Part shown: positions 44,935 to 52,878 of the stretch, piece after piece
Position numbering within the stretch: position 1 is the first letter of the stretch
Layout: every line of letters starts with the position of its first letter
From: a virus
Taxonomy: Duplodnaviria > Heunggongvirae > Uroviricota > Caudoviricetes
Virus record (IMG/VR): IMGVR_UViG_2802429175_000002
Strand: one strand, 5' to 3'
Length of the DNA stretch: 64,000 bases
Program-made: the position numbers and the translations under genes
The notes under the pieces: generated by a model
The model's database searches: none
Told to the model about the DNA's origin: nothing
What the model saw: only the letters and a program-made list of their open reading frames with translations

Positions 44935-45252
44935 TTGCCGACTTCATCGAAGAACGGCCCGCGCTCCCTCGGTCGCACTGGAGTCAAGTTTGACAAGGCG
45001 AAAGCCCGCGTTCTACGCGCAAACCAGATCTGCGACGAGTGCCATGAAATCATCGACCTAACCCTTCCATGGCCCGATCCGAAGAGCGCCACCGTTGACC
45101 ACATCATCCCCGTGAAAGATCTCGCGTGGGATGACCCGTTGTGCTACGACGTCTCGAATCTCGTTCCCTGCCATCTGGTTTGCAACCAACGCCGAGGCGG
45201 GAAGGCGAAGAAGAAGGTCAAGCATCCCACATCCCGCAACTGGCGAGAATAG
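44935..45252 (+). CDS. HNH endonuclease
   Basis: TTG start. Motif CDEC...DHIIP...N...CHLVCN. Confidence 0.55.
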   Translation: MPTSSKNGPRSLGRTGVKFDKAKARVLRANQICDECHEIIDLTLPWPDPKSATVDHIIPVKDLAWDDPLCYDVSNLVPCHLVCNQRRGGKAKKKVKHPTSRNWRE

Positions 45253-45642: not shown

Positions 45643-45713
45643 ATGGGCGTGGTCCAAAGGCAGGACAACGGATTCCAAACCCGTTAGTGGGAGTTCGATT
45701 CTCTCCGCCCGTG
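45643..45713 (+). tRNA. tRNA-Trp (CCA)
   Basis: Acceptor ATGGGCG/CGCCCGT, D-stem GTCC/GGAC, anticodon loop TTCCAAA, T-arm GGGAG-TTCGATT-CTCTC. Hand-folded. Confidence 0.5.
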
Positions 45714-45731
45714 CAATGCCTATGTGTGGCA

Positions 45732-45761
45732 TGACATTTGAAAACTCCATAGAGATATAGT
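45732..45761 (+). promoter_or_regulatory. near-consensus sigma-A-type promoter for the tmRNA
   Basis: -35 TGACAT, 18-nt spacer, -10 TATAGT, about 9 nt upstream of the tmRNA 5' end. Confidence 0.45.
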
Positions 45762-45770
45762 TACTTCAAT

Positions 45771-46161
45771 GGGGCTGACAGGCTTTCGATTGCGAGCCAA
45801 GTCACCAGAGAAGCGTGCCGGGATGCAACGCCCGTAACAGTGCAAACACAATAACTGCAGCTTCTGCTCAGTCCGACTACGCCCTAGCTGCGTAGTTCGG
45901 TGGGGTACAACGGTTCACCCGTTCCGTGTGCCAATCCACCGTCGCCAATACGGGGACCGTCGCTCGGTTGACTAACGGTAGCGGCATACAAATTGCCTTA
46001 GTTCACCCGCCGTGAGGTGTGTAGATCGGCTGTGTACCGTGCGGTATTCCCTTCGAGGGTTTGTCTCGCAGATCGCACGGAATACGAGAAGACTGCGAGC
46101 TACGCACGTAGAGGACTGTGACAAGTCACGTAAGACCCCGGTTCAATTCCGGGCAGCTCCA
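45771..46161 (+). ncRNA. ssrA: tmRNA (ssrA), tag peptide ANTITAASAQSDYALAA
   Basis: 5' GGGGCTGACAGGCTTTCGATTGCG pairs with 3' ...CCCGGTTCAATTCCGGGCAGCTCCA, giving a tRNA-like domain with a G3:U70 pair. The internal tag ORF (45842..45895) ends ...DYALAA-TAG. Confidence 0.7.
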
Positions 46162-46450
46162 CGAGGGGGAGATCCGGGTTCGAGTCCCGGCTGGGTAGCT
46201 AGCAGCTGGCCAGTAGTTCAAGGGCAGAACACCCTCGTTAAACGACGCGTGGCCCCGGCTCGCGATCGACGTCACCACGTCGCGGAAGCGTTTCGGTGGT
46301 GATCAGCCGATTCTACGGGGAATGTGGAGAGACATCTCCGCGCGGCCATGGGGATGCCTGTGGTCACATGGATGACAGGGTAATCCCGCAGTAGGTTCCG
46401 ATAAAAAGGATCCGACCTGAGGTGCCGTACCTGGGCCCTGTTGTCCATCA

Positions 46451-46525
46451 TCTGCTTGTAGGGAAGTTTGGCCATCCCGCCTGGTTTGGGACCAGGAAAC
46501 CGCACGTTCGAATCGTGCCTGGCAG
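46451..46525 (+). tRNA. tRNA-Pro (TGG)
   Basis: Anticodon arm CCTGG-TTTGGGA-CCAGG, T-arm GCACG-TTCGAAT-CGTGC. One acceptor mismatch. Confidence 0.5.
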
Positions 46526-46705
46526 ACTGGTTAGGTTGTCAGTACACCTCCATGAGTAGGGAACTGTTCGTCTGTTCGCGGACGATAGACGTAAATTCGC
46601 GCGCTACGCCCCCCTAGCGTCAACATGGTGGGCTCTACTTGGCTTCAGGCTCTCGTGAGTCTGTGATGCGGTTGCCACGCCGTGCAGGGCCGGAAGGTGG
46701 CGTCT

Positions 46706-46778
46706 TGGCCTGTAGCTCAATTGGTAGAGCAGCGAGCTGTTAACTCGCGAGGTGTAGGTTCGAATCCTTCCAAGCCAG
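46706..46778 (+). tRNA. tRNA-Asn (GTT)
   Basis: D-arm TAGCTCAATTGGTAGAGC, anticodon arm GCGAG-CTGTTAA-CTCGC, T-loop TTCGAAT. Confidence 0.55.
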
Positions 46779-46888
46779 CGTTGGAACGTGGTGCAAGCGT
46801 AGAGCAGCCAAGCGCGACGGCGAGTGGTCAGCACATCGGCAGTCGACGGTCGAAAATGCCAGGGGAAAGCTGGTCGTTCCAAACCTAT

Positions 46889-46965
46889 CTCGTCGCGAAT
46901 AGGCGATCAACGCAGACTGTAAATCTGTTCCTTCGGGTGTGCAGGTTCGACTCCTGACGGCGAGA
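46889..46965 (+). tRNA. tRNA-Tyr (GTA), tentative
   Basis: Anticodon arm GCAGA-CTGTAAA-TCTGT, acceptor CTCGTCG/CGGCGAG, T-loop TTCGACT. The D-arm is atypical. Confidence 0.35.
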
Positions 46966-47040
46966 CAACTTCGTTGGTTGGCCGGGGCAAATGTCAACTG
47001 GGTGGCGACCCGATCGGATGCATACGGTCAAACCGCTCTT

Positions 47041-47112
47041 TGAAGATTGGTGTAACGGCAACACACGACGCTCTGAACGTCGCAGTTCTTGGTTCGAATC
47101 CAGGGTCTTCAG
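47041..47112 (+). tRNA. tRNA-Gln (CTG)
   Basis: Acceptor TGAAGAT/GTCTTCA, anticodon arm CGACG-CTCTGAA-CGTCG, T-arm CTTGG-TTCGAAT-CCAGG. Confidence 0.55.
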
Positions 47113-47194
47113 CTTTTGGGTCAACCGGTAGGTACCTGCCATGAGTTGACTGTCCGGTGGCTCGCATGCCCTCCGTCACAGAAGCATGCCGTAT

Positions 47195-47280
47195 GGAAGG
47201 CTCCGCTGAGTTGGTCGGCAACTGGCTTCGAAACCCAGGGGGCGCATCGTGTCGCAGGGGTTCGACTCCTCAGCTTTCCG
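47195..47280 (+). tRNA. tRNA-Ser (CGA), class II
   Basis: 86 nt. Anticodon loop TTCGAAA, long variable arm, T-loop TTCGACT, acceptor GGAAGGC/GCTTTCC. Confidence 0.45.
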
Positions 47281-47358
47281 CTCTAAGACTTCCACCTGCC
47301 TGAACGGTGGCTGAACAGGTGCACTGAAGATCGCGTCGGTGCTGAAATGGTGGACCAT

Positions 47359-47441
47359 GGAGAGCGCAACTAGTTAGGTGACTAGGCCTGGTTGCTAACC
47401 GGAGCGCTGTTCGCAGTAGGTTTCGAATACCTGCCTCTCCG
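47359..47441 (+). tRNA. tRNA-Ser (GCT), class II
   Basis: 83 nt. Anticodon loop TTGCTAA, variable arm GCG-CTGTT-CGC, T-loop TTCGAAT. Confidence 0.45.
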
Positions 47442-47968
47442 CGTTGCGGCGCTACCCCGCAGCCCTGAAAAGGGACTATGTGCTGTATAAGTGCACTGGG
47501 AAACCAGAGGTAGCACCCACACGAACTCTGTTGTGGGAGATATAGTTGAGACATTCGGGGCATGGCCCATAAGCCACCGCAAGGTGGTGAAAGGTGGGGT
47601 GACAACCCACCACCCGCAAGGGCAATCCATGCAATCCAATCCTCAAGCAGTCAGAGATGGCTGCCAGTGGTCGAGCTACGCGCAAGAGTCCAGGGCCGTG
47701 AACCGGTGGGACGCACCATCCCGTACGTGCGGGTGAAAGCGCTATTGGGCAAGCACACTGTGGAACGGAAGGAACTGAGTCCGAGCCTCGCAAGCAAGGG
47801 CGTGTTCCATGGAGACCATGGGTTGGGACGACGGTTCCATATCGGGTCAAAGAGTGTCGGTAGCCCAGCCAGGCCAAAGCACAAGAGGCGTGAAGCATTC
47901 TGTGCCCTAAAAGGGTTCGGAACTTCATGGGGAAGCACGTCTCTAGTCAAATCATTCTCCGCTGCGAG
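47442..47968 (+). ncRNA. candidate structured non-coding RNA (GNRA-tetraloop-rich) inside the tRNA array
   Basis: About 525 nt with no convincing ORF. It has multiple hairpins capped by GCAA/GCGA loops (CCACCGCAAGGTGG, CCCGCAAGGG, GTGGGGTGACAACCCAC). Confidence 0.35.
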
Positions 47969-48040
47969 AATGACGTAGACCAACGGAAGGTCACCAGTTA
48001 TTGGAAACTGGATGTGCGGGTTCGAGTCCCGTCGTCAATA
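47969..48040 (+). tRNA. atypical tRNA-like gene with an 8-nt anticodon loop
   Basis: Good acceptor, D-arm (GACC/GGTC) and T-arm (GCGGG-TTCGAGT-CCCGT). The anticodon stem CCAGT/ACTGG encloses TATTGGAA, which is 8 nt. Confidence 0.35.
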
Positions 48041-48334
48041 AAAAGCAAAAGTCCTTCCCCTGCCGAGGAGCAAAAGCGCCTTAATCCCAGACCCTCGGGA
48101 ATCTGGGCCGCACAATAGTCCCGCAAGGTGAGTGCGGTTTGTAGGCAAGTACTGCAGCAGTGAGACGGCCATCTCATCGCGAAGGGAAAGCCGCAGAGTA
48201 GCTTTCGGCATGACGAGTGGTTCACGGTAACGGACCAGGCGTGAGAACTAGGTCAGGGATGGCCTGGAGAAGCAGCGAATCAATAATGCTGCGAAAGGTT
48301 CTCGATAGCGGGTGTACTCTCAGCCTCTAACAAT
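48041..48334 (+). ncRNA. second candidate structured non-coding RNA in the tRNA array
   Basis: About 290 nt between tRNA genes, with several GNRA-capped hairpins (CCCGCAAGG, TCGCGAAGGG, CTGCGAAAGG) and no plausible ORF. Confidence 0.3.
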
Positions 48335-48408
48335 CGACTCTTAGCTCAGTTAGGTAAGAGCGACCGGTTGAAGCCCGGTGCGCCCCCGTTCGATTCGGGG
48401 AGAGTCGG
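48335..48408 (+). tRNA. tRNA-Phe (GAA)
   Basis: Perfect acceptor CGACTCT/AGAGTCG, D-arm GCTC...GAGC, anticodon arm ACCGG-TTGAAGC-CCGGT, T-arm CCCCG-TTCGATT-CGGGG. Confidence 0.7.
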
Positions 48409-48529
48409 CGTGTAAGGGAAACCAGGTTCCGCAGCTACTGGTGAAAAGCTGGGCACTCCACGTAAAAGGTCGCGTTGACTCGCGCGGATACGGTAGGCGA
48501 AGAACTGTCCTGCCGGAATGAGTCCTCAT

Positions 48530-48604
48530 GTCGGGGTAGAGAAGTTCGGCCATCTCGCTGTCCTCATAAGTCAGAGACCGTGGGTTCGAATCCCACCCCC
48601 GCCA
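48530..48604 (+). tRNA. tRNA-Met (CAT)
   Basis: Anticodon loop CTCATAA, T-arm GTGGG-TTCGAAT-CCCAC, D-stem GAGA/TCTC. Confidence 0.45.
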
Positions 48605-48663
48605 CGCAAAACCAGGGGCACCTGGTTGGGCCCGCCGCAGCCCAGCGCCAATGCGGCTCCAAT

Positions 48664-48738
48664 CCCGTTGTTGGGCAATGGAGCGCCCACCGCCCTACGA
48701 AGGCGCAACGCATGCAGGTTCGAATCCTGTCAACGGGT
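48664..48738 (+). tRNA. tRNA-Arg (ACG)
   Basis: Perfect acceptor CCCGTTG/CAACGGG, anticodon loop CTACGAA, T-loop TTCGAAT. Confidence 0.5.
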
Positions 48739-48802
48739 CTTAGCGCTGCCGGTACAAAGCCCGAAGAAACAGAGATGCCATGCTGCTCTGGCCAGCGCCA
48801 TA

Positions 48803-48873
48803 CCTTGTGTAGCTCAATGGAAGAGCCCCTCGCTGTGACCGAGGTTATCGCGGTTCAACTCCGCGCATAGGGA
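48803..48873 (+). tRNA. tRNA-His (GTG)
   Basis: D-arm TAGCTCAATGGAAGAGC, anticodon arm CCTCG-CTGTGAC-CGAGG, T-arm CGCGG-TTCAACT-CCGCG. Confidence 0.55.
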
Positions 48874-48897
48874 CGTACAGACACTGAAAGGCTTGAC

Positions 48898-49074
48898 ATG
48901 GTTGCAAAGCTGCGCGCGGGTATTGCCCACGCTGACATCGTCACTGCGGTAAACGCATTGATCGACGGCCTGGACGAGTTCCAGGATGTTCTCGACGATC
49001 TTCGCGAGAAGGTGGAGGAGAAGGTCGTAGCCAAGAAGGCACCGGCCAAGAAGGCAACTGCCGCCGCAGAGTAG
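48898..49074 (+). CDS. small hypothetical protein (58 aa) embedded in the tRNA array
   Basis: ATG with a GAAAGG ribosome-binding site. Product MVAKLRAGIAHADIVTAVNALIDGLDEFQDVLDDLREKVEEKVVAKKAPAKKATAAAE is helical with a Lys/Ala-rich tail. Below the ORF-track cutoff. Confidence 0.4.
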   Translation: MVAKLRAGIAHADIVTAVNALIDGLDEFQDVLDDLREKVEEKVVAKKAPAKKATAAAE

Positions 49075-49098
49075 CGGCCTCATCTATAATCGATAGAC

Positions 49099-49189
49099 GG
49101 TGTGTCTCTCGGCGAGAGGGCGGTTCGAGTCCGCAGCGTGAGGTTCTCACGTCATGGGCCCCTGGCAGGTTCGATTCCTGCGCACACCA
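49099..49189 (+). tRNA. atypical 91-nt tRNA-like gene (identity unresolved)
   Basis: 7-bp acceptor GGTGTGT/GCACACC with discriminator A, and a 3' T-arm GCAGG-TTCGATT-CCTGC. The interior holds a second TTCGAGT hairpin and extra hairpins. Preceded by a TATAAT box at 49085. Confidence 0.3.
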
Positions 49190-49194
49190 CCTAT

Positions 49195-49266
49195 GGCGAA
49201 GTGAGTGAGTGGCTAGCTGGCAGGCTGCAACCCTGACCCACGCCGGTTCGATCCCGGCCTTCGTCT
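49195..49266 (+). tRNA. tRNA-Cys (GCA)
   Basis: Acceptor GGCGAAG/CTTCGTC, anticodon loop CTGCAAC, T-arm GCCGG-TTCGATC-CCGGC. Confidence 0.45.
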
Positions 49267-49323
49267 CGACGCGCTCGGTGAGTAGGAGTCACCGTAAAGC
49301 CGACGCGGCAATATCGGCACTAA

Positions 49324-49398
49324 GCTCCAATAGCCCAACATGGCAGAGGCGACAGGCTTAGACCCTGTGCGGTGGGGGTTCGAATCCCTCTTGGAGTA
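49324..49398 (+). tRNA. class-I-shaped tRNA with Leu anticodon (TAG)
   Basis: Anticodon arm ACAGG-CTTAGAC-CCTGT, 5-nt variable loop, 3-bp D-stem with a 12-nt loop, discriminator A. Confidence 0.4.
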
Positions 49399-49465
49399 CG
49401 CATCCTGAGGCCGGTGGCAACTGGTAAGGGGATCCGCAGCCACAGCGGTCCCGCCTCAGGACTCT

Positions 49466-49540
49466 GGTCGGCTAGGCAAACCTGGCAAAGCCGCCGAGCT
49501 CAAACCTCGGTGTCTGCGAGTTCGATCCTCGCGCCGACTA
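49466..49540 (+). tRNA. class-I-shaped tRNA with Leu anticodon (CAA)
   Basis: All 75 nt are accounted for. Anticodon arm CCGAG-CTCAAAC-CTCGG, 5-nt variable loop TGTCT, T-arm GCGAG-TTCGATC-CTCGC, discriminator A. Confidence 0.45.
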
Positions 49541-49541
49541 C

Positions 49542-49613
49542 TGGGCGTTGGTGAAACGGCATCACCCTAGACTTTTAATCTACGAGTTGAGGGTTCAAAT
49601 CCCTTGCGCCCTA
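49542..49613 (+). tRNA. tRNA-Lys (TTT)
   Basis: D-stem GTGA/TCAC, anticodon loop CTTTTAA, T-arm GAGGG-TTCAAAT-CCCTT. Confidence 0.45.
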
Positions 49614-49614
49614 A

Positions 49615-49686
49615 GGGAGTATAGTTAAGCGGTTATAACTCTTGGCTCTTACCCATGAATCCCAGGTTCGACCCCTGGTGCTCCCA
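49615..49686 (+). tRNA. tRNA-Lys (CTT)
   Basis: Acceptor GGGAGTA/TGCTCCC, D-stem GTTA/TAAC, anticodon loop CTCTTAC, T-arm CCAGG-TTCGACC-CCTGG. Confidence 0.45.
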
Positions 49687-49687
49687 C

Positions 49688-49759
49688 TGGTTCGTCATCC
49701 AATGGTGAGGATACCGTTCTGATAAGACGGCAATCACAGTTCAATTCTGTGCGAACCTA
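49688..49759 (+). tRNA. tRNA-Ile (GAT)
   Basis: D-stem ATCC/GGAT, anticodon arm CCGTT-CTGATAA-GACGG, T-arm CACAG-TTCAATT-CTGTG. Confidence 0.5.
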
Positions 49760-49763
49760 CCAA

Positions 49764-49830
49764 GCGGTAGTTCCGGAAAGTGCGTGGCCTCCTAAGCCGC
49801 TGCAAGGGTGTTCGAGTCACCTCTACCGCT
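49764..49830 (+). tRNA. tRNA-Arg (CCT), short D-arm
   Basis: Perfect acceptor GCGGTAG/CTACCGC, anticodon arm GTGGC-CTCCTAA-GCCGC, T-loop TTCGAGT. Only 67 nt. Confidence 0.4.
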
Positions 49831-49833
49831 CCA

Positions 49834-49909
49834 AGCGAGTGTGATGTTTTAACGGTTTAGCATCCCTGTCTTCCAAACAGGTCGTGCCAGTTCGAATCTG
49901 GTCACTCGT
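49834..49909 (+). tRNA. tRNA-Gly (TCC)
   Basis: Anticodon arm CCTGT-CTTCCAA-ACAGG, T-arm GCCAG-TTCGAAT-CTGGT, acceptor GCGAGTG/CACTCGT. Confidence 0.45.
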
Positions 49910-50035
49910 TCGACGCCCTGAGATGGGCGACCCTCCAGTGGAGACTGCGGTTGTCGCTGGAAGTTTGGCGCGGATAGGGCATCCGCCAGGGACCTCTCGC
50001 TGCAGCATTGGCACCCTCAACCAAAAGCCCAATAT

Positions 50036-50103
50036 GCCTGGTTAGTCTGGGACGAAAGCTGGCTTACATCCAGCTAAGCGGGGTTCGATTCCTCGACTGG
50101 GTA
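50036..50103 (+). tRNA. tRNA-Val (TAC), reduced D-arm
   Basis: Anticodon arm GCTGG-CTTACAT-CCAGC, T-arm CGGGG-TTCGATT-CCTCG. Acceptor has G-U pairs. 68 nt. Confidence 0.4.
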
Positions 50104-50177
50104 CGTAGCGGGAAGGATCGGTTCGATACCGAGCCAGTTTCGGCTGGATAGTGTAGAGGAATGCACACCCGCGCCAG

Positions 50178-50251
50178 GCCTCATTAGCTCATCCGGCTAG
50201 AGCACTTCCTTAGTAACGAAGAGGCGCGGGGTTCGAGACCTCGATGAGGCC
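50178..50251 (+). tRNA. tRNA with AGT anticodon (Thr-like), tentative
   Basis: Perfect acceptor GCCTCAT/ATGAGGC, D-arm GCTC...GAGC, anticodon loop TTAGTAA, T-arm CGGGG-TTCGAGA-CCTCG. Confidence 0.4.
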
Positions 50252-50343
50252 CTATGTTCAGTCTGCGGCCATGTTCAGGAATCCTGAACAGCTACGTGGA
50301 TTGAACACAAGTTCAGACCCAGTCTTGTCAAAACGGGGACCAT

Positions 50344-50417
50344 GGGGGCGCATGTTCCAAGGTGGCGACCGATCCTTGCAAGATTGGTGTGGTCGCGTTC
50401 AATTCGCACCGTCTCCA
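50344..50417 (+). tRNA. tRNA-Ala (TGC)
   Basis: Anticodon arm CGATC-CTTGCAA-GATTG, acceptor GGGGGCG/CGTCTCC with a G3:U70 pair, discriminator A, T-loop TTCAATT. Confidence 0.4.
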
Positions 50418-50524
50418 CGGGAGTTTTGGCCAAGCAGCTCCAGGGTTTGATTCCCAGAAAGTTGGCTCAGGTTGTTCGTACCTGCCCCGGTGGCCTCGAA
50501 AACCACTGGGGGTAAACGTCCAAT

Positions 50525-50598
50525 CGAGTCGTAGCTTAGTGGACTAAAGCACTGCCCTGTCACGGCAGGGGACGCGGGTTCAAATCCCGTCGACTTGA
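50525..50598 (+). tRNA. tRNA-Asp (GTC)
   Basis: D-stem GCTT/AAGC, anticodon arm CTGCC-CTGTCAC-GGCAG, T-arm GCGGG-TTCAAAT-CCCGT. Confidence 0.6.
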
Positions 50599-50599
50599 C

Positions 50600-50938
50600 G
50601 TGAGTAGAGAACGAGTACTGTCTGTAACCCTCGCGGATTGTCGTGTTGACACATTCCGGTCTGGGGGCAAGGGCGGTCAAAACCAGAACAAGCGCGAGAC
50701 AGGTGTGCGGATTACCCACGAACCGTCCGGTGCTGTGGGTGAGTCGCGCGAGGAGCGTAGCCAGCTGCAGAACAAGCAGGCTGCGTTCAAGCGTATGGCG
50801 AGCTCGCCCAAGTTCCAGCTATGGGTGAAACGTCAGGTGGGTCGCGAAGACCTACAGCGTGCCCAGGTAGAGCGTGATATGTGGCCGGTGAACCTCAAGA
50901 CTGAGGTCCGCGAATCCGGCAAGTGGGTTGAGCAATAA
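50600..50938 (+). CDS. arfB: ArfB-like peptidyl-tRNA hydrolase (release-factor GGQ domain)
   Basis: GTG start directly after tRNA-Asp. GGQ motif RSGGKGGQNQNKRETGVRITHEPSG with a basic C-terminal tail. Confidence 0.6.
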   Translation: MSRERVLSVTLADCRVDTFRSGGKGGQNQNKRETGVRITHEPSGAVGESREERSQLQNKQAAFKRMASSPKFQLWVKRQVGREDLQRAQVERDMWPVNLKTEVRESGKWVEQ

Positions 50939-50943
50939 CCCTA

Positions 50944-51014
50944 AGGTCCATTGGTGTAGTGAGAGCACACCACCCTCTCAAGGTGTTGGTGCGGGTTTGA
51001 TTCCCGCATGGACT
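50944..51014 (+). tRNA. tRNA-Glu (CTC)
   Basis: Acceptor GGTCCAT/ATGGACT, anticodon loop CTCTCAA, T-arm GCGGG-TTTGATT-CCCGC. Confidence 0.5.
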
Positions 51015-51019
51015 ACTCG

Positions 51020-51609: not shown

Positions 51610-51899
51610 GCCAGATCGAGCTGGAAGAATTCCCGAAGCTTCCAGAGGGTTACCGATGGCGAGTCCGTTACAAGCCAAGTTCATTCATGGTTGACCTTGA
51701 CGAGGTGAAGGTGTCGATCAAGCGTGGATGGCTCACTGTCGTGAGTGAGAACACCTTCCCGAGCATTCACAATCATAGTTTGCGGGACGCTGCGCTCTGG
51801 GCGGCACAGCGGGCATGGTCCGAATGGAAGTCCCCATCCTTACATGACCAAGCTGCGGCGATCCAGGCCGAGCTCAACTCGGGAGTACTGACCCCGTGA
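51597..51899 (+). CDS. hypothetical protein
   Basis: In-frame GTG at 51597 or TTG at 51606. The ORF continues in the 51357 frame to 51899. Confidence 0.4.
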   Translation: MGALSQIELEEFPKLPEGYRWRVRYKPSSFMVDLDEVKVSIKRGWLTVVSENTFPSIHNHSLRDAALWAAQRAWSEWKSPSLHDQAAAIQAELNSGVLTP

Positions 51900-52405
51900 C
51901 TCGCCGTGTTCTTGTCACCGGCAGCCGTGACTGGCCTGACCCGAAGCCGGTTGTCTGCGCGCTCAATAGCCAGTGGCTCAAGGCGCACAGGAAGGGTGAG
52001 AAGCTCGTCGTTGTGCAGGGGGAGTGCCCTACGGGTGCTGATCTTTTCGCTGCCGAGTGGGCCCAGTTCCGCGAGGATCGCGGCTTCCGCGTCAAGAATG
52101 AGTCGCACCCCGCAGATTGGAATCGGGACTGCGACCACCACTGCACTCATCCACCTCGGTGGAAGTGGGGTAAGTCGTACTGCCCACTGGCTGGGCACAT
52201 GCGAAACCAGGCGATGGTAGATCTCGGTGCTGATATGTGTATCGCATTCCCGTTGAAGGACTCTCGCGGTACGTGGGACTGCATGAAGCGCGCAAAGAAG
52301 GCCGGAATGTCCGTGATCAACTTCGGATACGACGGGCCCCTGTGCTCTCCGTCGATCGATTATCACGTTGAGCCACATACCGGTCCGTGTGTTCGTGCCC
52401 GCTGA
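51896..52405 (+). CDS. SLOG/DUF2493-like Rossmann-fold protein with Cys/His-rich insert
   Basis: Motifs VLVTGSRDW and VVVQGECPTGADLFAAEWA resemble the YspA/DprA-like SLOG fold. Tentative. Confidence 0.4.
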   Translation: MTRRVLVTGSRDWPDPKPVVCALNSQWLKAHRKGEKLVVVQGECPTGADLFAAEWAQFREDRGFRVKNESHPADWNRDCDHHCTHPPRWKWGKSYCPLAGHMRNQAMVDLGADMCIAFPLKDSRGTWDCMKRAKKAGMSVINFGYDGPLCSPSIDYHVEPHTGPCVRAR

Positions 52406-52524: not shown

Positions 52525-52878
52525 ATGAGTGAACTGAAGCAAATGATCGTCATGCGTAAGGATCTCGGCATGCCTGCCGGGAAGATGGTCGCGCAGGGTG
52601 CTCACGCCTCAATGGGCGCGGTGCTTGAGTACCGCGATGACCCACGGGTCGTTGAGTGGCTAGCTGGTTCGTTCACGAAGGTCTGCGTGCGGGTGGAAGG
52701 CGAAGATGCGCTGATTGAGCTTTGGCACAAGGCAATTGATGCGAAGCTTCCAACGTCCCTCATCACGGATAGCGGAAAGACTGTTTTCCATGGTGTTTTG
52801 ACGACCACGTGTTGCGCTATTGGACCTGCAACGGCTGAAGAACTCGCTCCGATCACGGGGGAGTTGAAGCTACTGTGA
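52525..52878 (+). CDS. Pth2-family peptidyl-tRNA hydrolase-like protein
   Basis: The N-terminus MIVMRKDLGMPAGKMVAQGAHASMGAV matches the PTH2 signature (RxDLxMxxGKxxAQxxHA). Confidence 0.5.
   Translation: MSELKQMIVMRKDLGMPAGKMVAQGAHASMGAVLEYRDDPRVVEWLAGSFTKVCVRVEGEDALIELWHKAIDAKLPTSLITDSGKTVFHGVLTTTCCAIGPATAEELAPITGELKLL

Follow-up and report, generated by a model that had tools for sequence, protein, structure and literature searches.

Within the 64,000-nucleotide (nt) stretch of viral DNA analyzed here (IMG/VR record IMGVR_UViG_2802429175_000002, Caudoviricetes; hereafter, the window), a long region interrupting a tRNA gene array can be assigned with high confidence to a single GOLLD gene of ~774 nt (47553-48326, plus strand, as are all its parts described below), located in the tRNA/transfer-messenger RNA (tmRNA) array of a Cluster M-like (Mclasvirinae) prophage of the Mycobacterium abscessus type. 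A first-pass annotation, made from the sequence alone, had instead seen two separate structured elements (47442-47968 and 48041-48334) flanking an odd tRNA (47969-48040), for which it offered a novel phage noncoding RNA (ncRNA), a degenerate or permuted intron, or tRNA-processing scaffolds as candidates. The check proposed there, a comparison of the whole window with Rfam using cmscan, settles the identity: the GOLLD model (RF02032) matches positions 47883-48326 with 193.1 bits, above the gathering score of 150 (E = 6.9e-53), and does so over its full length (model positions 1-416 of 416). This single match runs across the odd tRNA, which is accommodated as an insertion in the unstructured variable linker of the model; thus, the second of the two regions and the last 86 nt of the first belong to one RNA. 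The RNA is therefore a representative of a known family rather than a novel one, and nothing was found in support of tRNA-processing scaffolds. The other hallmarks of the family are present as well, namely, a structured, less conserved 5' domain upstream of the model match, giving a total length (774 nt) within the ~700-850 nt range of the family, a variable linker that separates the P13/P14 hairpin from the 3' core and sometimes contains a tRNA, and a phage- or prophage-borne gene located beside tRNA genes.

RF02032 was also matched, with 162-216 bits, at the syntenic site of the tRNA array in 16 relatives, that is, in every relative fetched. The locus is 90-93% identical to those of the M. 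abscessus prophages prophiGD54-2, prophi86-1, and prophiT49-2, and 69-72% identical to those of Cluster M mycobacteriophages (Vilmaviridae/Mclasvirinae), including Bongo, PegLeg, Rey, Estes, MrMagoo, Aziz, Reindeer, and Nanosmite, among others; beyond the locus, the window is ~85% identical to prophiGD54-2 over 77% of 24 kb. GOLLD RNAs with an internal pseudo-tRNA have been published before from tRNA arrays of mycobacteria and phages; the feature described here is an ordinary, unannotated member of that family, neither a new RNA nor an intron. The family (Weinberg et al. 2009, as cited in later papers) is on record from Mycobacterium tRNA arrays (including Morgado 2020, likewise as cited in later papers) and from Cluster M phages (PMC6582537; PMC9569102; PMC12286853, Supplementary File 3), and in mycobacterial tRNA clusters it lies beside an HNH endonuclease gene and contains a pseudo-tRNA (PMC6582537; PMC9569102). 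GOLLD consists of a 3' region that is conserved and a 5' region that is less so, separate domains joined via a variable linker, in which tRNAs are sometimes found and which faces the interior of the cage, and its gene is borne by phages or prophages near tRNA islands (PMC12286853). A weak Northern signal was reported for GOLLD in M. aubagnense (Behra et al. 2019, PMC6582537), and the level of the RNA rises during lysis in L. brevis (PMC12286853). The copy in the window shares with the GOLLD RNAs of Mycobacterium arrays and Cluster M phages a full 3'-domain match, a structured 5' domain, a linker with a tRNA or pseudo-tRNA, and placement in a phage tRNA array near an HNH endonuclease and tmRNA, at 69-93% nucleotide identity; nothing of substance differs. 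In the alignment of Kretsch et al. 2025, Cluster M phages already have entries whose 3'-domain coordinates are exactly those found here, and for phages it gives coordinates of this domain only; the 5' boundary at 47553 and the helices of the 5' domain are derived in the present analysis.

Several observations of the first-pass annotation stand. The six motifs it quoted are all located where it had placed them, and hairpins capped by GNRA tetraloops exceed chance expectation, both with stems of at least 3 bp (6 vs. 1.97 expected; P = 0.019) and with stems of at least 4 bp (5 vs. 0.66 expected; 0/1,000 shuffles). Its suggestion of a large structured ncRNA embedded in a phage tRNA array is borne out by the RF02032 match and by the predicted fold of the 774-nt RNA, which is far better than those of shuffled sequences (z = -4.63). 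Consistent with its view that the region contains no credible open reading frame (ORF), none is conserved among 14 homologues, and a stop-free stretch of 141 codons in the window is broken in relatives that are ~90% identical. A protein-coding function might be argued from a 138-amino-acid ORF in the window (47562-47978) and from small coding sequences (CDSs) placed in GenBank over the homologous 5' domain, which are 38-47-amino-acid "hypothetical proteins" (Estes gp105, PegLeg_94, Aziz gp105, Reindeer gp95, and Rey gp107). However, the strand, frame, and position of the longest open frame vary among the 14 homologues, the frame of the window is broken in prophiGD54-2, prophiT49-2, and the related locus L133, and the substitutions track base-pairing rather than codon periodicity, so that coding appears extremely improbable. 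The features annotated within the 5' domain lie at 1702-1818 in Estes (locus L004), 1672-1815 and 1502-1573 in PegLeg (L007), 1702-1830 in Aziz (L009), 1674-1817 in Reindeer (L010), and 1584-1727 in Rey (L011); the small CDSs, as well as a second "tRNA-Asn" that the PegLeg record puts in the GOLLD 5' domain, are probably mis-annotations. None of the GenBank records examined carries a GOLLD annotation.

The portion of the RNA covered by Rfam opens with a branched hairpin (47883-47945; model positions 1-60 in the cmscan alignment), which by its position corresponds to the P13/P14 element preceding the linker, the names of the helices being taken over from the literature. This is the most conserved stretch in all homologues and the sole part that matches the sequence of the env-38 GOLLD RNA (env-38 positions 423-456). 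It is followed by the variable linker (47946-48042; published as J13/15). The linker is inserted with respect to the Rfam model, holds a hairpin (47953-47972) along with the tRNA-like insert, and varies among homologues in content as well as in length (47-118 nt). The 3' core (48043-48326) starts with the conserved single-stranded AAGCAAAAGU (48043-48052) and ends in GGUGUACUCUCAGCCU. The motif TCGCGAAGGG (48177), previously taken for a tetraloop hairpin, falls in the GOLLD consensus structure on a helix strand and an internal loop.

Upstream of the Rfam match lies the ~330-nt 5' domain (47553-47882), which is outside the model and was delineated by conservation and covariation; it is collinear and co-conserved with the 3' domain in all homologues. 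In an alignment of the region 47553-47945 from 16 sequences, the window and 15 homologues from M. abscessus prophages, Cluster M phages, and IMG/VR contigs (including the distant L142, L150, and L154), RNAalifold predicts 68 pairs, 33 of which show compensatory double changes. Standard pairs occupy 96.1% of the alignment cells, compared with 31-47% when the partners are slid by 1-3 columns, and the slid controls contain only 6-14 covarying pairs, with a covariation score of 0.03-0.08 vs. 0.374 for the actual structure; the observed values were reached by 0 of 500 shuffles. The predicted elements include a short hairpin (47557-47559/47566-47568) with the loop GCAUGG (47560-47565), which pairs with CCAUGC (47627-47632), two GCAA hairpins (47573-47588 and 47613-47622), further hairpins at 47593-47611, 47647-47664, 47825-47838, and 47863-47874, and a long-range helix between 47669-47682 and 47740-47756. 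The first ~90 nt constitute a junction in which the GCAUGG/CCAUGC pairing encloses the hairpins 47573-47588, 47593-47611, and 47613-47622, with 98% of the cells paired and 13 of the 23 pairs covarying. The two GCAA hairpins are kept in relatives, with GCAA, GAGA, GUGA, or GUAA loops and compensatory changes in the stems. Both the stem 47557-47568 and the pairing of its loop with the strand ~60 nt downstream covary; this loop pairing could be an intramolecular pseudoknot or, the sequence being near-palindromic, an inter-subunit kissing contact.

The left boundary of the RNA differs from the position 47442 originally proposed. In a 12-sequence alignment of the whole region, conservation begins abruptly at 47553 (AUUCGGGGCAUGGCCCAUAAGC...) and continues to 48326. 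Of the 111 nt between the upstream tRNA-Ser-like gene and GOLLD (47442-47552, plus strand), a 74-nt segment (47444-47517) is present in the window and in prophiGD54-2 and absent from prophi86-1 and prophiT49-2, and the remainder (47518-47552) is found only in the closest clade of M. abscessus prophages, indicating that this stretch is a variable spacer outside the conserved RNA. The spacer holds two GAAA-capped GNRA hairpins (47463-47474 and 47496-47507) and the motif GAGATATAGTTGAG (47537), and it folds only marginally better than shuffled sequences (z = -1.74). GOLLD in Cluster M phages starts right after a tRNA or the remnant of one: a truncated tRNA 5' half, GCUCGCUUAGCUCAGUCGGCAGAGCGCCCGCGUU, in Estes (L004, ~1460-1494), MrMagoo (L005), and Rey (L011), and a longer, degenerate version of the same piece in Aziz (L009, ~1440-1494), which indicates decay of a tRNA gene at the GOLLD boundary.

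The spacer is also relevant to the possibility of a degenerate or permuted group I (or II) intron, or of another ribozyme, such as RNase P RNA, a reading prompted by the impression of intron-like motifs and by the abundance of GNRA loops. Of the two presumed intron core elements, GAGATATAGTTGAG sits in the nonconserved spacer, absent from relatives, and CAGTCAGAGATGG (47648) is the loop of the hairpin 47647-47664, which occurs in relatives as well. Neither at the gathering score nor, with permissive filters, at E ≤ 1 did any intron, RNase P, 6S, or other family match. No gene is interrupted, both tRNA-Phe, which flanks GOLLD, and the tRNA-like element inside it being complete, and GOLLD accounts for the region as a whole. 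An intron or ribozyme thus has next to no chance of being the correct explanation.

Two GOLLD cages have been solved by cryo-electron microscopy, the 14-mer of env-38 (PDB 9MEE; PMC12286853) and the 12-mer of S. agalactiae (PDB 9L0R; PMC12990946), providing a basis for comparison with the RNA encoded in the window, which is known from its sequence. All three share the Rfam 3' domain and the order of parts (5' domain, P13/P14, disordered linker, 3' core), and the 5' starts are similar, with a short hairpin, an A-rich strand, a GNRA hairpin, a GAAAG-type strand, and another hairpin. In contrast, the 5' domain of env-38 is ~420 nt long (vs. ~330 nt here) and shows no detectable sequence similarity, and the env-38 RNA is A+U-rich (vs. 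~55% G+C here) and lacks a tRNA-like module in the linker. ROOL, another phage-encoded, cage-forming RNA found near tRNA islands, occupies the same genomic niche and presumably shares the mode of action, that of a homo-oligomeric cage with an internal linker, but is unrelated in sequence and fold and has no match in the window.

Several observations weigh against the assignment or against extending it to a cage of known type. A GCAA hairpin at the periphery of the Rfam consensus (model positions ~236-249) is missing here, a difference from the env-38 and S. agalactiae RNAs, and other lineages have 5' domains longer by ~40-90 nt, so that the number of subunits cannot be predicted; a review ties such differences to changed stoichiometry. 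A simple consensus scan, which is poorly suited to mycobacteria, found no promoter or terminator of its own for GOLLD inside the array, and the transcription, RNA ends, and oligomerization of this copy are deduced from its context and from the solved homologs. Furthermore, an nhmmer search of the env-38 GOLLD (Supplementary Table 4) with the 5'-domain alignment recovered the P13 hairpin only. Since the 5' domain could not be matched to that of env-38 by sequence, a covariance model (R1) was built from the junction and searched, with filters off, against seven unrelated GOLLD lineages from the published alignment, those of phiCbK, Mesorhizobium Cp1R7A-A1, DSS3_MAL1, Phaeobacter MD18, Erythrobacter L02, DSS3P8, and Vibrio PG07. 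Individually, the matches are weak (5.6-12.4 bits; E = 0.07-3.7, with the E-values being rough). In all seven lineages, however, the top match lies on the same strand as GOLLD, its start being 368-399 nt upstream of the 3'-domain match (for Erythrobacter L02, which is below the Rfam gathering score, the published 3'-domain coordinates were used), and by our own estimate the chance of a top match falling in a ~30-nt window on the right strand is ~1 in 100 per locus. This consistent placement is strong joint evidence that the junction represents the family-wide start of GOLLD.

The insert in the linker (47969-48040) is recognized as a cloverleaf by tRNA models (Rfam tRNA, 49.3 bits against a gathering score of 29; ARAGORN, tRNA-??? 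with anticodon "tg"). Its D and T arms are normal and no CCA is encoded. The acceptor stem is not fully paired, with 6 of the 7 pairs formed (A2·A71 is a mismatch) and 3 of them G-C, and a 7-bp hairpin (47953-47972) overlaps its 5' strand by 4 nt and beats it in the minimum free energy (MFE) fold. The anticodon arm, CCAGU-UAUUGGAA-ACUGG, can be read with an 8-nt loop, as in the first-pass annotation, but a 6-bp stem (with an extra U-A pair) enclosing a 6-nt loop is equally possible and is the reading adopted by ARAGORN; neither provides a 7-nt loop with a defined anticodon. The loop UAUUGGAA recurs in prophiGD54-2, prophi86-1, and prophiT49-2, where the element is annotated as tRNA-OTHER or tRNA-Gln. 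Beyond these prophages, no anticodon is conserved, the loops differing in every lineage (UAUUGGAA, AUAUGGA, CGCAUAA, UUUAGGA, UUGGAAU, AUUGAGA, CUUGAAC, CCUGAAC, and CAUUGAAC). Thus, L133, with a GOLLD 85% identical to that of the window, has the 7-nt loop AUAUGGA; L164, with a GOLLD 84% identical, has an unrelated tRNA body with the loop CGCAUAA; Estes and Rey share a common body with the loops UUUAGGA and UUGGAAU, respectively; Bongo, PegLeg, MrMagoo, Aziz, and Reindeer (the last with an 8-nt loop) keep the D, anticodon, and T arms without an acceptor stem; L158 has only the anticodon-arm hairpin; and in Nanosmite the module is absent. While the loops change, the stems are kept by compensatory changes in close pairs: between the window and L133, the D stem changes from GACC/GGUC to GGCC/GGCC and the anticodon stem from CCAGU/ACUGG to CCUGU/ACAGG, and changes of the same kind are seen in the anticodon and T stems of Estes vs. 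Rey and in the T stem of MrMagoo vs. Bongo.

To compare the embedded elements with ordinary tRNAs, ARAGORN was rerun on all loci, yielding 15 distinct embedded tRNAs from nine lineages (phages of actinobacteria and alpha-proteobacteria) and 130 distinct free-standing tRNAs from the same loci; the acceptor stems were counted with an offset search, since the 3' ends given by ARAGORN vary. The sequences are not phylogenetically independent, which qualifies the P values below, and the contrast is conservative because only modules callable by ARAGORN were counted. A fully paired acceptor stem was found in none of the 15 embedded and in 93 of the 130 free-standing tRNAs (Mann-Whitney P = 1e-10), and embedded acceptor stems have 1-3 G-C pairs as opposed to mostly 4-5 in the free-standing ones (P = 2e-10). 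U33 is near-universal in tRNAs. Position 33 is not U in 5 of the 15 embedded tRNAs, all of which have G33, vs. 3 of the 130 free-standing ones, none of which has G (Fisher P = 3e-4). The G33 elements come from Caulobacter phage phiCbK, the roseophages DSS3_MAL1 and MD18, Erythrobacter phage L02, and the actinophage-like IMG/VR contig L164 (L192 1307-1380, L194 680-755, L195 570-645, L196 689-766, and L164 8396-8469). In addition, several embedded tRNAs have anticodon loops of 6, 8, or 9 nt. A Ser anticodon on a short-arm body still argues for non-function, the free-standing tRNA-Ser being 82-94 nt long and the embedded "Ser" tRNAs 72 and 76 nt. A Leu anticodon on such a body, considered as a similar proof, was dropped because free-standing phage tRNA-Leu are also 76 nt long.

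These data bear directly on whether the insert is a genuine tRNA that is excised by RNase P and RNase Z, leaving GOLLD as two molecules, in which case two stable RNAs would flank a working tRNA; this might, for instance, suppress +1 frameshifts by means of its 8-nt loop or decode Pro or Gln in an odd manner. The tRNA score, the good D and T arms, and the 6 of 7 acceptor pairs fit such a tRNA, as does the identity of the odd loop in several prophages, although these prophages are ~90% identical overall, so that conservation of the loop carries no weight. Already in L133 the loop is a different one, and further relatives have other anticodons, no acceptor stem, or no module at all. Together with the deficient acceptor stems of the embedded tRNAs, the competing 7-bp hairpin, and the lack of detectable expression of the insert in the M. 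aubagnense GOLLD, termed a pseudo-tRNA by Behra et al. (PMC6582537), this renders excision of a working tRNA very unlikely. The aberrancy of the embedded tRNAs agrees with this pseudo-tRNA designation and fits less well the idea that functional tRNAs are stored in the GOLLD linker (PMC12286853; PMC12990946). The systematic character of this aberrancy is the sole part of our results that may be new.

Two readings of the insert as part of an intact GOLLD RNA are compatible with these observations. Under the first, which comes close to, but falls short of, an even chance, array tRNAs inserted in the tolerant linker and eroded neutrally, so that the embedded tRNA is a decaying relic with functionless oddities, and GOLLD is GOLLD nonetheless. 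The homologues appear to form a decay series, from the full cloverleaf through loss of the acceptor stem and an anticodon arm only to deletion, two unrelated tRNA bodies occupy the same site in GOLLD RNAs that are 84% identical (the window and L164), and the insert is missing altogether in DSS3P8 and Vibrio PG07. However, neutral decay does not readily account for arms maintained by compensatory changes in close pairs while the loops change, nor for the recurrence of the unusual G33 in four lineages from phages of two phyla. The second reading, which we regard as rather unlikely although less so than excision, is that the insert is a dedicated, tethered mimic of tRNA with a part in the action of GOLLD, and not a spare or stored decoding tRNA. 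The module resembles YrlA/Y RNAs and the tRNA-like domain of tmRNA in keeping arms of the D, T, and anticodon types while its acceptor stem is weak or missing and its anticodon loop noncanonical but, unlike these, it sits in the linker of a much larger RNA, and there is no YrlA match over the insert. We know of no partner protein for the GOLLD tRNA-like module.

The RNA encoded in the window has the two-domain layout of the family, proceeding from the 5' domain (47553-47882) through the P13/P14 hairpin (47883-47945) and the linker (47946-48042) to the 3' core (48043-48326). As in the env-38 and S. agalactiae structures, its many GNRA tetraloops, which remain GNRA in relatives while the stems covary, and its loop-loop pairs would make tertiary and inter-subunit contacts. 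Held together by loop-loop and A-minor contacts, 12-14 monomers would assemble into a closed homo-oligomeric cage in which the 5' domains form the caps and the 3' domains the rings; the linker would point into the cavity and carry the tRNA-like insert with it. The genomic context suggests that GOLLD is transcribed together with the tRNA array and that processing of the tRNAs on either side determines its ends. The tRNA-Phe(GAA) gene (48335-48409, plus strand; identified by both ARAGORN and the Rfam tRNA model) starts 8 nt after the end of GOLLD, and a tRNA within ~10 nt 3' of GOLLD is found in relatives as well, whereas the GOLLD start in Cluster M phages adjoins the end of a tRNA; thus, both ends are probably generated by tRNA processing, with the RNase P site of tRNA-Phe 48335 probably setting the 3' end. 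Our best guess is that during the lytic phase GOLLD serves as a compartment made of RNA or as a multivalent scaffold, with a role connected to tRNAs and translation, and that the embedded element acts as a tethered tRNA mimic rather than as a decoding tRNA.

The surrounding array comprises 20 tRNAs and tmRNA at 45643-51016 (ARAGORN and Rfam combined); besides GOLLD, the whole-window Rfam scan identified tmRNA at 45771-46164 and 18 tRNAs. Upstream of the array is an HNH endonuclease gene (44935-45252), a published marker of mycobacterial tRNA clusters (PMC9569102). The array is flanked by genes for an RF-1-domain (ArfB-like) protein (50600-50938), a YspA/SLOG-domain protein (51896-52405), and the peptidyl-tRNA hydrolase Pth2 (52525-52878); tmRNA, the RF-1-domain protein, and Pth2 make up a translation-rescue gene neighborhood around the array. 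The ORFs of the window that were scanned did not include an RtcB ligase, for which prophiGD54-2 has an annotation at the corresponding site. A scan of genome contigs with the 15-mer TTCATGGGGAAGCAC, a pattern too short for 596 Gb, yielded no homologue among the fetched loci, and metagenome contigs scanned with a 21-base GOLLD pattern gave no match.

Several other elements of the array deserve mention. The tmRNA gene (plus strand) scores 95 bits with Rfam and is not called by ARAGORN in the window, although ARAGORN does call its homologue in prophiGD54-2 and prophiT49-2. Just 3' of it, a segment on the plus strand (46148-46256) has a sub-threshold match to YrlA (28 bits vs. a gathering score of 69; E = 3e-4) and contains T-arm- and D-arm-like hairpins; it could be a tRNA remnant. 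YrlA, a tRNA-like Y RNA, occurs in some mycobacteriophages that encode Ro60 (PMC4201824), and no Ro60 gene was found in the part of the window looked at. Two class-II tRNA-Ser-like genes with long variable arms were missed by ARAGORN and are unannotated also in the closest prophage records: one at 47359-47441 (plus strand), with the anticodon loop UUGCUAA (GCU) and a cloverleaf fold but no Rfam match even at E ≤ 1, and one at 47195-47279 (plus strand), with the loop UUCGAAA (CGA) and only a sub-threshold tRNA-Sec match (26 bits). Bacterial tRNA-Leu typically has a long variable arm; the free-standing tRNA-Leu(UAG) and tRNA-Leu(CAA) of the array (49324-49399 and 49466-49541) are 76 nt each, without such an arm, and 76-nt tRNA-Leu genes are also present in L001-L003, L133, and L164.

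Overall, a striking "orphan" structured region is resolved as an unannotated copy of GOLLD, a family of RNA-only nanocages. Because the Rfam model covers only the 3' half of GOLLD, automated annotation leaves ~330 nt of real RNA looking like unexplained spacer, which is how the first-pass annotation was misled into seeing two elements. The occurrence of noncanonical embedded tRNAs across distant GOLLD lineages provides a testable handle on what the cage encloses. If the insert is indeed a tRNA mimic, then, with one module per subunit inside a 12-14-mer, GOLLD would present a tRNA decoy or bait in multivalent form. Host factors that target tRNAs, for example an anticodon nuclease, a tRNA-modifying enzyme, or a ribosomal site, could be captured or shielded against in this way.

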